A DNA stretch of 33,695 nt, from NCBI GenBank assembly GCA_964372795.1, contig CAYJSO010000001.1, positions 2,993-36,687 on the forward strand, in the 5' to 3' direction. Within the stretch, counting starts at the first letter, position 1, and each line of letters opens with the position of its first letter. This document shows positions 12,001 to 15,000 of this stretch, piece after piece. This DNA is from an uncultured Methanosarcinales archaeon. Lineage in GTDB: Archaea > Nanobdellota > Nanobdellia > Woesearchaeales > JAGLXL01. The position numbers were made by a program.

Positions 12001-15000
12001 GGAACCGCACCAACAGCAGTGCAGCAAAAGCCTAAACCAATTTTCGCCCAATATGGTGTCTCAGGGCTTATTTTATCAGAAAAAAAATTTATTATTACAA
12101 AGGCAGGTACAATCCCAGCTACATAAAATGGCCCTTTGTAAAATATCTTCTCAGTCATTTTTTCATCATATCCGCCAAAAACCCAAACAATATCACCTGC
12201 ACTCCAACCAGCATCAGCACTCCGCTAAGCACAACTCTCGGAACTCCTCCAACTCTTCCAGTATACAGCCAATAAAAAAACACAGCTAAACCCAATAAAA
12301 ACCCAAGCCCAAACAAAATTCCACCAGCAAGCCCAAAAAACTTCAACGGCTTGTAATCACGATATATTCTAAAAATATTTATCCAGGCTCTCATAGCATA
12401 CTCAAACGGATTTTTAATCAATCTGCTCCTGCCTTCTCTCTTAGCAAAATAAACTGGCACTTCAGCAACTTTAAACTTTTCCTTAAACGCCCTAATCACC
12501 TGCTCCTGTGTATAAGTATGCCCCGAAGTCATCTCAATTTTAGCAACATCAGCATTAAAAGCCCTAAATCCAGTCTGCGCATCCGTTACCTTTGCATTAA
12601 CGATATTTGAAATTACTTTTGAAAAAGCTTTATTCCCAAATCTCTTCAGCCAATGCATTTGTTCTATATAACCCAAAAACCTGCTTCCCAAAACAAGATC
12701 ATAACCCTCTTTTATCTTCTCAATCAGCTTTGGAATATCCTCAGCTTTATACTGCCCATCTGCATCCGTATGCACAATAACATCCGCTTTCAGCTTCAAA
12801 GCATTCTGCATCTCTGTTCTAAACGCTTCCGCCAGCCCATAATTCTTAGGATGCTTAACAACAATAGCCCCGGCTTCTCTGGCAACCTCTGCCGTTCTGT
12901 CTCTGCTTCCATCATCTACCACCTGAATCTTATAGTTATACTCATTTGAACTTAAAACTCGCTTTATCTCCTCAATAACATGCCCTATTGTTCTTTCCTC
13001 ATTATAAGCTGGAATGCTCACTACTACTTTCATAAAGCCTCTCCCTACCACCCCTTATGCCCATATGCTGCTTTATAGCAAACTATTTATATATGTTTCG
13101 TGGCTTAACCTGGCTGGGGTGGTAAAATAATGCAGTCTATAATACCTGGAGTTAAGCTCGAAAAAGCAAAGAAAGTAGCAACATTTGACTTAAATAAGCA
13201 GCAAAACGGCTATTTAATTGAGCTTTACAAAGGCAATGGAAACAACAGCGAAAAGACTGTTGCTTACTTAACAACATTAAAAGTAGGCGTTTTCAAAGGC
13301 TATCATCTTCATCGTATTCGCTCAGCTCACTATATCTGCGTAAAAGGCAAAATAAAAATCATCCTGTACAAAAACAAGCAACGCGAGGAACATATTCTTG
13401 ACGCAAACAATCCAACGAGACTTTACATTCCAAACAACACGGCAACCGGCCTGCAAAACATAGGCGATGAAGAAGCCTGGCTGATTAACTACCCGGATCC
13501 AGCTTACGACCCAAATCTAAAAGACGAACAGGTTGAATACACACAGGAAGAGCTTGAGAAAGGTGTAGAAAAATGATAACATACGAAAAGGTAATGACAA
13601 GAGATGCGCCATTAATAATAATCGAAGCTTGGTGCACCTGCTTCGACAGCTCAATTCCAGCAGCATGTGGGATCAAATGGCCAACACCAATCTTCGTCTT
13701 TCGAAATGGAGCTGTTGAAAGCCAGCGTCCGACAAGACTTTTCCATGAAGAATTGCCTCCAAAACTCTCCTTGCAGCTTAAGAAACCAGAATACGCAAAA
13801 AACGCTCTCCAGAGTTTTGAAAAATACTACAAATATGCAAAATACCTAAAAGGCATTAAAATTAAAAAAGTTGGCTCAGAAGAAGCACTGAAAGAAATAA
13901 AAACTGCAAGCGACGCTTTCACGCAAGGCGGCGCCGGGCTAATCCTTGGGTACTGGTGTGTAGAGTGGAACAAAAAGGCAGCTGATAATGGAAAAGCTTC
14001 TCTGTTCAGCGAGGAAATAATTGAAGGCGCACGCAAAACAAGGGAAGGCGACACCTTGATGGACAACGCTGTCGAAGCTGTTTACGATTACCTAGACATA
14101 ATCGCAGAAAACGAAAACTGGCCTCGCAGCTTGATGAAATTTTTTACTCTAAAAGAACTGGAAGAATCAATAAAAACAAAAAAACCTGATTCTGAATTAC
14201 TAAGAAAAAGAAAAAATGGCTATATATGCCTCAATGGAAAAGTAGTTCTCGCTAATGAAATCAAAGTGACTCTGCAAAAATTAGGGATAAACATTGAAGA
14301 GCCGGAGACAACACAGCCAACACAACTAGATAAACTTAAAGGATTTTGCGCCTGCCAAGGCTACGCAAAAGGCAAAGTTGCAGTTATCTTCAATAGAGAG
14401 CAGCTTAATAAAATTGAAGATGGCGGCATCTTGGTTGCACCAATGACAACGCCATTATTCATGCCGGCAATGCAAAAAGCTGTAGCGTTTGTCACAGATG
14501 AAGGAGGTCTGTTAAGCCATGCAGCCATCATTGCAAGAGAAATGAAAAAGCCGTGCGTAATAGGCACAAAAATCGCAACACAAGTCCTAAAAGACGGTGA
14601 TCTTGTAGAAGTTGATGCTAACAAAGGCATCGTGAGGAAGATAAAATGAAACTCCTAATCACAGGCGGTGCAGGATTTATTGGATCAAATTTTATTAGAC
14701 ATGTTCTAAAAAAATACACCAATTACAAAGTAATAAACTTAGATAAACTAACTTACGCTGGCAACTTAAACAATTTAAAAGACATAGAAAACAGCACAAA
14801 CTACAAATTCATCAAAGGCGACATCTGCGACGCACAACTAGTAAATGAACTTGCAAAAGACATCGACATAATCATAAACTTCGCAGCAGAAACGCATGTT
14901 GACCGCTCCATAGGCAACCCAGACGACTTCATAAAAACAGATGTTTTTGGAACTTACACTTTGCTTGAAGCAGCAAAAAAATATAAAATAAAACGCTACA

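Follow-up and report, generated by a model that had tools for sequence, protein, structure and literature searches.

A candidate substrate and phosphohistidine carrier subunit of a split dikinase, inserted into a deoxysugar operon of an uncultured archaeon

Two-component dikinases divide phosphotransfer between two proteins. In the HpeHI system, HpeI is the ATP-grasp protein and HpeH joins a substrate domain to a swivel domain, the histidine of which is essential; HpeH alone is able to shuttle phosphate between substrates (PMC12167813). CreHI and PpsAB are dikinases with the same split (PMC12167813). The catalytic histidine of HpeH, of the rifampin phosphotransferase RPH and of phosphoenolpyruvate (PEP) synthase lies in a shared motif, T/SxxGGxxxH (PMC12167813), and in RPH the intervening domain diverges fast while ATP-grasp and swivel stay conserved (PMC4844700). 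Here we describe an open reading frame (ORF) at positions 13573..14649 of a 33,695-nt (33.7-kb) stretch of contig CAYJSO010000001.1 from an uncultured archaeon, the whole of which we call the window. We consider it rather probable that its product is the substrate/carrier subunit of a two-component dikinase, inserted in a deoxysugar operon and not a regular step of that pathway.

The ORF lies on the plus strand, starts with ATG and encodes 358 aa, predicted to form the substrate-binding and phospho-His carrier subunit of a split dikinase. An earlier note on this stretch, made from the sequence alone, had recognised a C-terminal swivel (PEP-utilizer mobile) domain of about 95 aa. The domain itself is confirmed by a full-length PF00391 match that includes His316 (aa 281-352, model positions 1-72 of 72, E 3.3e-26, 91 bits against a gathering cut-off of 23.1); its size has to be corrected to about 104 aa (aa ~255-358; 14335..14646, plus strand) once the N-terminal strands are counted, with the N-terminal domain at aa 1 to ~247 (13573..14313, plus strand). 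The swivel motif reads TDEGGLLSH316AAIIAREMKKPCVIG, and aa 311-331 are GGLLSHAAIIAREMKKPCVIG. The T/SxxGGxxxH loop is present as T308-D-E-G-G-L-L-S-H316, which places His316 (codon 14518..14520, plus strand), the predicted phospho-carrier residue in TDEGGLLSH, at the catalytic-His position of HpeH, RPH and PEP synthase. His316 is invariant in 55 of 55 aligned family members, as are T308, D309, G311, G312, R322 and E323. The top PDB sequence matches of the swivel are an archaeal PEP synthase (8a8e, 3e-27) and RPH (5fbs, 4e-17), and the family consensus, GGITCHAAI, is PEP-synthase-like.

The kinase half and the barrel of larger dikinases are both missing from the ORF, as the earlier note had judged by eye for the N-terminal region and as Pfam, NCBIfam and PDB-sequence searches bear out. 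The ATP-grasp domain PPDK_N (PF01326) is unmatched in Pfam and NCBIfam, PDB sequence alignments begin only at aa ~190-255, and no PEP/pyruvate TIM barrel is present; the chain stops 6 residues past the swivel domain. Neither a PPDK_N nor a barrel signal was detected in the other ORFs of the window, and an unfiltered six-frame hidden Markov model (HMM) search of the 33.7 kb returned no PPDK_N, degraded or not, and no second swivel copy. That a carrier should lack its kinase half had seemed unexpected in the earlier note. The arrangement stands, but the surprise is lessened by its being known from HpeHI, CreHI and PpsAB (PMC12167813). Full-length homologues of the protein share 30-57% identity with it, and an AlphaFold2 model built on the 55-sequence alignment consists of two packed domains (pLDDT 95.8, pTM 0.92). 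A metagenome scan with the single window protein returned one 1.2-kb fragment and nothing else.

The N-terminal domain has no match in Pfam or NCBIfam, and against PDB sequences neither its own profile (A2, the short class) nor that of a longer class of relatives gave a match. Modelled on its own (pLDDT 96.4), it adopts an alpha+beta fold dominated by long helices, for which Foldseek found only nonsignificant matches in the PDB (best E 0.6, TM at most 0.25), with RPH not among the top 50. With the full-length model, the best Foldseek matches are RPH structures (5fbs, E 2e-11, ~280 aligned columns), and the N-terminal domain of Enzyme I is also matched (1zym, ~276 columns, E 1.5e-6); of the N-terminal domain, only the last ~60 residues ahead of the swivel (aa 190-250) can be aligned in sequence with RPH (705-765), a segment that includes the conserved R213 region. 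R10, R52, W132, R157, E195 and R213 are near-invariant, and R157, E195 and R213 are conserved across all paralogues. Conservation extends along the whole domain in over 100 proteins of 330-380 aa, and a search with its profile through 1.84 billion cluster representatives yielded 538 proteins that carry it, 153 of them at E <=1e-10.

As judged from these comparisons, the N-terminal region is a small distinct domain family, separate from ATP-grasp. That it might turn out to be a degenerate ATP-grasp, a possibility named in advance in the earlier note, can be rejected, given that its similarity to PPDK_N is nil and that it sits after a bona fide PPDK_N in fused relatives. A shortened rifampin-binding domain was considered as well and is unsupported by the short-class profile, the long-class profile and the domain-only Foldseek search. 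By analogy, the variable middle of the domain would set specificity.

The relatives of the window protein were sampled by ORF calling and HMMs of both domains in 80 loci from species-representative genomes, which belong almost exclusively to Patescibacteria (the Candidate Phyla Radiation, CPR) and DPANN archaea; neighbourhood counts below refer to 84 loci besides the window, and the count of single modules to 83. In relatives the N-terminal domain lies between PPDK_N and swivel, and the ATP-grasp is either fused or stand-alone, which is why we read the window protein as a carrier subunit. A fusion of 682 aa (L009) runs from PPDK_N through the N-terminal domain to the swivel, as confirmed with Pfam, and proteins of 650-700 aa in the representative library carry the N-terminal domain at about residues 325-575. 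The fused ATP-grasp matches those of RPH and PEP synthase at 1e-85 to 1e-100. As for stand-alone partners, a PPDK_N ATP-grasp occurs within 10 kb in 37 of the 84 loci, usually at the head of an array (further examples are L025, L026, L043, L062 and L079), and in L086 it stands immediately upstream of a 44%-identical orthologue (P0020). The PEP/pyruvate barrel is absent throughout the family.

In the sampled loci, 234 ORFs end in a swivel domain, often standing in long tandem arrays on one strand. The largest array, on one Patescibacteria contig, comprises 21 module genes and a single PPDK_N in 36 kb (JBBTYL010000001.1, 102568-138640; L041 + L008); another locus (L067) packs 15 modules into 20 kb, and no ATP-grasp is visible there. 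Further long same-strand arrays were seen in L063, L084, L081, L068, L059 and L057. Two size classes can be told apart, one of about 350 aa, to which the window protein belongs, and one of about 480 aa, in which the N-terminal domain keeps the scaffold of the short class but carries an insert of ~130 aa (hhalign probability 98.9%, E 1.7e-17). Modules are also joined within single chains: a 3,761-aa ORF (L015:7364-18649) encodes one ATP-grasp and at least 8 swivel modules, and a giant ORF of 2,932 aa (L037:16-8814) ends at the contig edge. Other giant ORFs, in which one PPDK_N is followed by 2 to at least 8 swivel modules, were observed in L017, L023, L024, L011, L019, L020, L040, L028 and L007, their hosts being Woesearchaeota, other DPANN and CPR metagenome-assembled genomes. 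They contain no Ns or X, and an origin as masked-sequence artefacts was rejected. At the other extreme, 29 of 83 loci have a single module, as the window does, and the nearest N-domain relatives of the window protein in representative genomes are such singletons.

When 1,082 neighbouring ORFs were clustered in search of a third partner, notable recurrence was confined to PPDK_N and a His_Phos_1-like protein. The His_Phos_1-like protein is found in 9 loci, and directly upstream of one orthologue (P0010); a copy of ~315 aa at L022:5144-6091 has an RHGE motif, and another lies at L090:1-624. The 43 non-family genes coupled to family members within 10 nt include three His_Phos_1, two LMWPc, two HD and two Fic proteins, together with an acylphosphatase, a HAD and a HIT protein. 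Such neighbourhoods are consistent with a system of phosphorylation and dephosphorylation. On a 3-kb Logan contig, a lone N-terminal domain plus swivel is fused to a C-terminal NUDIX domain (P0053, 516 aa; NUDIX at aa 385-508), possibly a hint at a nucleotide-linked substrate or product. Several members (P0028, P0055, P0108 and others) carry the name 'phosphoenolpyruvate synthase/pyruvate phosphate dikinase' despite the missing PEP/pyruvate domain, a naming error that probably runs systematically through CPR/DPANN metabolic reconstructions. In an incomplete literature library, nothing specific was found that describes the CPR/DPANN family or its arrays and megaproteins; a survey of the CPR resistome mentions rph-like hits in passing (PMC8651080).

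The genes on either side of the window ORF form its host operon. An FdtA/WxcM-like cupin (13130..13576, plus strand; PF05523, E 1.3e-9), putatively a dTDP-4-keto-6-deoxyhexose 3,4-ketoisomerase, precedes it, and rmlB (14646-15674; TIGR01181, 482 bits), rmlA (15677-16417; rmlA models) and a DegT-type aminotransferase (16432-17574; PF01041, 392 bits) follow on the same strand; the cupin belongs to this operon and is not part of the dikinase. The couplings between cupin and rmlB that the earlier note described can both be read in the sequence: the cupin stop overlaps the swivel start in an ATGA at 13573..13576, and the swivel stop overlaps the rmlB start in another at 14646..14649, which are the left and right edges, on the plus strand, of the inserted ORF. 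The nearest relatives of the cupin, 71% identical (P0243, P0259), lie in cupin-rmlB-rmlA(-degT) operons that have no swivel gene, and there cupin and rmlB themselves share a 4-nt stop/start overlap, GTGA in L093 (1114-1117) and ATGA in L094 (6420-6423). Cupin, RmlB and DegT of L093 are ~70% identical to those of the window, and L093 likewise has hexapeptide transferase, GT2 and PMT_2 neighbours. The flanks of the junction are conserved between the two (cupin C-terminus ...EYT.EELE.GV.K followed by the stop, RmlB N-terminus MKLL.TGG...). Since the syntenic operons run from cupin to rmlB without the swivel gene and the flanking termini are conserved, the comparison indicates that exactly one ORF (1,073 nt) was inserted at the 4-nt overlap of cupin and rmlB, with ATGA regenerated on both sides, and that the event is lineage-specific. 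The ATGA at the two new joints resembles a target duplication of 4 nt, or microhomology.

Insertion is most simply the explanation of where the gene stands, and the family to which it belongs is unusual and apparently uncharacterised in the literature found. Overlaps of 4 nt are present at 26% of module-module junctions, as against 7-8% of junctions between unrelated genes in the same genomes, which suggests that modules may travel as ORF-precise cassettes. The ATGA overlaps prove co-transcription and speak only weakly for a shared function. Rml neighbours occur in one of the 84 other loci (L050), and a phmmer search of these loci with all window proteins found no RmlB, cupin or DegT and a single RmlA, in that same locus. 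L050 is a 2.6-kb contig of a Parcubacteria genome and provides another, independent case of rml adjacency, in which an incomplete family member (30-545) overlaps rmlD (542-1375) by 4 nt, followed by rmlA (1380-2102) and NifU. This copy is 47% identical to the window protein over the C-terminal 170 aa and no closer to it than other paralogues. None of the 10 contexts of close orthologues examined has rml genes; the orthologues are found with Asn synthase and Fic, Bat/MoxR (L003), AAA_14, PGI and transketolase (L087), glucokinase (L006), TrmB (L005, L089), eIF2alpha with Nop10, or in arrays.

The sugar pathway of the window is complete without the swivel gene, with RmlA, RmlB, the 3,4-ketoisomerase-like cupin and the aminotransferase, and an acetyltransferase at 19760-20296; the closest named relatives of its sugar genes are from Patescibacteria. 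To the question whether the swivel gene is a conserved step of dTDP-sugar synthesis, the evidence from these comparisons says no. The role in the nucleotide-sugar pathway that the earlier note had entertained, and the conservation of the rml linkage on which it had staked its reading, found no support: the linkage recurs in a single other locus and beside none of the close orthologues, and L093 and L094 do without the gene.

We favour the reading that the window protein acts as one half of a two-component dikinase. By analogy with the split systems, a separate PPDK_N ATP-grasp protein encoded outside the 33.7-kb window would phosphorylate His316 with ATP, yielding AMP and Pi; the swivel domain would then swing back to its own N-terminal domain, where the phosphoryl group would be handed from His316 to the acceptor, with R157, E195 and R213 as likely phosphoryl-transfer residues. 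In the family scheme, one ATP-grasp would serve from 1 to more than 20 paralogous modules. The domain make-up, the architecture of the family, the ATP-grasp beside or within its relatives and the lack of a conserved rml linkage are observed; from them we infer phosphotransfer, a partner encoded by this genome and an acceptor that most probably lies outside the core dTDP-sugar intermediates. Of the RPH-type phosphotransfer that the earlier note had considered, the combination of an acceptor domain and a swivel histidine with a separate kinase half is supported, and the role in the sugar pathway is not. Several observations weigh against our interpretation. No ATP-grasp partner lies within the 33.7-kb window, and the N-terminal domain has no similarity to the rifampin-binding domain of RPH and HpeH that profiles or Foldseek detect; its role as acceptor site is presumed from position and analogy, not homology. 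Coupling on both flanks within a large glycan-biosynthesis cluster normally argues for shared function, and the independent family member in L050 overlaps its downstream rmlD-rmlA genes by 4 nt as well. Finally, the function proposed for the family is drawn from sequence, models and analogy.

The tight coupling of the swivel gene on both operon sides could also be the mark of an enzyme recruited for decoration, along the lines of the earlier note. Charged in trans, the module would phosphorylate a hydroxyl or the 3-amino group of a dTDP-3-amino-3,6-dideoxyhexose, or a glycan, and so leave a phosphate or phosphoramidate on a cell-surface glycan. Many enzymes for decoration are encoded in the surrounding 25 kb of glycan cluster, among them a carbamoyltransferase, an acetyltransferase, two AlgX-like SGNH proteins, PMT_2 and GT2s, and the nearby acetyltransferase looks like a WcaF-type O-acetyltransferase, so that the 3-amino group may be free. 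The L050 member adjoins rmlD and rmlA, other orthologues lie near sugar genes (the glucokinase, TrmB and PGI-transketolase contexts given above), and the superfamily has precedents in glycan and deoxysugar chemistry with Cj1418, TalE (PMC6482885) and glucan water dikinase (PMC13553574). In the phosphoramidon pathway of TalE, the phosphorylated product is glycosylated from dTDP-L-rhamnose by the dTDP-rhamnose-dependent TalC (PMC6482885). However, the syntenic operons with ~70% identical enzymes work without the gene, and no close orthologue examined has rml genes beside it. Two rml-adjacent genes among ~260 family genes is, by a rough estimate, about the chance level in small rml-carrying genomes; 4-nt overlaps are found at 7-8% of unrelated-gene junctions anyway, and other paralogues resemble the window protein no less than the L050 copy does. 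Recruitment of this kind seems unlikely to us, although it deserves to be kept in mind. We would go further only as speculation, and consider it improbable, that CPR bacteria and DPANN archaea possess a 'one kinase, many carriers' system in which one ATP-grasp charges up to about 20 paralogous modules, each with a version of a novel acceptor domain, in which the modules spread within and between genomes as ORF-precise cassettes at [A/G]TGA overlaps, and in which the window copy, captured by the deoxysugar operon, puts a phosphate or an N-linked phosphoramidate on an amino-deoxysugar or glycan.

The match of the full-length model to the N-terminal domain of Enzyme I (1zym) raises the thought of a phosphorelay or regulatory module, the N-terminal domain of which would dock a protein, as the helical subdomain of Enzyme I docks HPr; phosphate from His316 would then pass to a protein, or the module would merely sense energy charge and tune neighbouring pathways in their expression or activity. 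Singletons do sit inside many unrelated operons, such as that of Bat/MoxR in L003, phosphatases of phospho-protein type (His_Phos_1, LMWPc) and Fic proteins recur beside family members, and the pyruvate kinase of Geobacillus ends in a swivel-like, likely regulatory domain (2e28). Yet the N-terminal domain alone matches neither the helical domain of Enzyme I nor any PDB fold, the surveyed neighbourhoods contain no recurring HPr-like partner, and the diverged modules of an array, as many as 21 and with an insert of ~130 aa that varies, are a better fit to diversified small-molecule binding. All characterised relatives built of ATP-grasp, an intervening domain and swivel are moreover small-molecule dikinases (PMC4844700, PMC12167813), and a regulatory function strikes us as quite improbable. 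Least credible is a functionless passenger, that is, an orphan module copied from an array that rides a well-expressed operon, inactive in a genome that has no partner kinase. It would agree with the absence of PPDK_N from the 33.7 kb, with the ORF-precise, cassette-like insertion and with the 29 of 83 loci in which a single module has no ATP-grasp within 10 kb. But the ORF is intact and keeps all family-invariant residues in both domains, its composition is that of its neighbours (GC 0.41, GC3 0.38), and singleton orthologues with 33-57% identity persist in many CPR/DPANN genomes, which points to purifying selection; one ATP-grasp with 21 modules on one contig implies, in turn, that action in trans is the norm.

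Apart from the host operon, the ORFs of the window make up a large glycan cluster, with several GT2 proteins, PMT_2, a Wzx-like flippase, a UDP-glucose dehydrogenase and decorating enzymes. Two proteins with bacterial PH domains (bPH_2; 17626-18120 and, with three repeats, 18121-19773) close the dTDP-sugar operon. Beyond them, on the minus strand, come the WcaF-like hexapeptide O-acetyltransferase (19760-20296), two AlgX-like SGNH proteins, one at 21224-22267 and the other at 24308-25402, and at 25380-27122 a carbamoyltransferase of the NodU/CmcH type. Elsewhere in the window, the archaeal ribosome-rescue protein RqcH appears to be spread over separate ORFs at 3883-4206 and 4324-4983, and possibly 5038-5385, with coverage of model positions 1-104 and 151-376 of 645; a pseudogene, a frameshift and an assembly error are all conceivable. 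The window also matches the archaeal-type kinase PRK03839, and with the RqcH fragments this makes a DPANN archaeon its probable source. A tRNA scan of the window found none.

Altogether, these observations bear on annotation as well as on the biology of episymbionts. Given that the pathway is complete without it, the swivel gene should not be annotated as a deoxysugar step, and the PEP synthase/PPDK labels on the family may lead CPR/DPANN reconstructions to infer gluconeogenic PEP synthesis wrongly. Genomes of ~1 Mb that spend up to 36 kb on arrays, or encode proteins of 3,700 aa with many modules, point to an important unexplored phosphorylation chemistry in these organisms, for which the scavenging or trapping of host metabolites, detoxification and surface modification are possible roles. 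An acceptor domain without a structural relative in the PDB would be a new scaffold for small-molecule dikinases.

How does the family compare with the systems described so far? With PEP synthase and PPDK it shares the closest sequence matches, for the swivel (8a8e) as for the fused ATP-grasp (1e-100), but in PEP synthase the swivel is central and followed by the PEP/pyruvate TIM barrel, which the window protein does not have. Enzyme I of the phosphotransferase system, in which an HPr-binding helical subdomain is inserted in the swivel domain, aligns in sequence with the swivel part only (aa 277-354), and the window protein has neither a match to the Enzyme I N-terminal domain in its own N-terminal domain nor the C-terminal, PEP-binding domain. 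Cj1418, the L-glutamine kinase for the O-methyl phosphoramidate (MeOPN) of the capsule, and TalE are phospho-His dikinases of the same superfamily within glycan and deoxysugar clusters; they differ in being single chains with their own ATP-grasp and in having a functionally proven link to their clusters; in the present case the linkage is not conserved. RPH has the order of the fused relatives (L009), with ATP-grasp, acceptor domain and C-terminal swivel, but it is one ~865-aa polypeptide, the N-terminal domain alone does not match its 430-aa rifampin-binding domain, and an antibiotic substrate is unsupported for the family. Closest in layout are HpeHI, CreHI and PpsAB, which like the family pair a stand-alone PPDK_N protein of ~320-350 aa with a subunit made of an acceptor domain and a C-terminal swivel, the ATP-grasp gene adjoining the modules in the arrays. 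Differences exist here too: HpeH is ~600 aa long, with a homologue of the RPH rifampin-binding domain as its substrate domain, whereas the acceptor domain described here has ~250 aa and no such similarity; the HpeH and RPH swivel motif has Met at position -2, as opposed to the PEP-synthase-like motif of the family; and HpeHI is hosted by aromatic-degrading bacteria, in contrast to the CPR and DPANN hosts in which one ATP-grasp may accompany up to 21 modules, and to the window, where a partner gene is missing. By its sequence, the window protein is not a PEP synthase or PPDK and, although its acceptor domain lacks the homology that is a defining feature of the HpeH/RPH group, it matches the layout of a carrier of the HpeH type.

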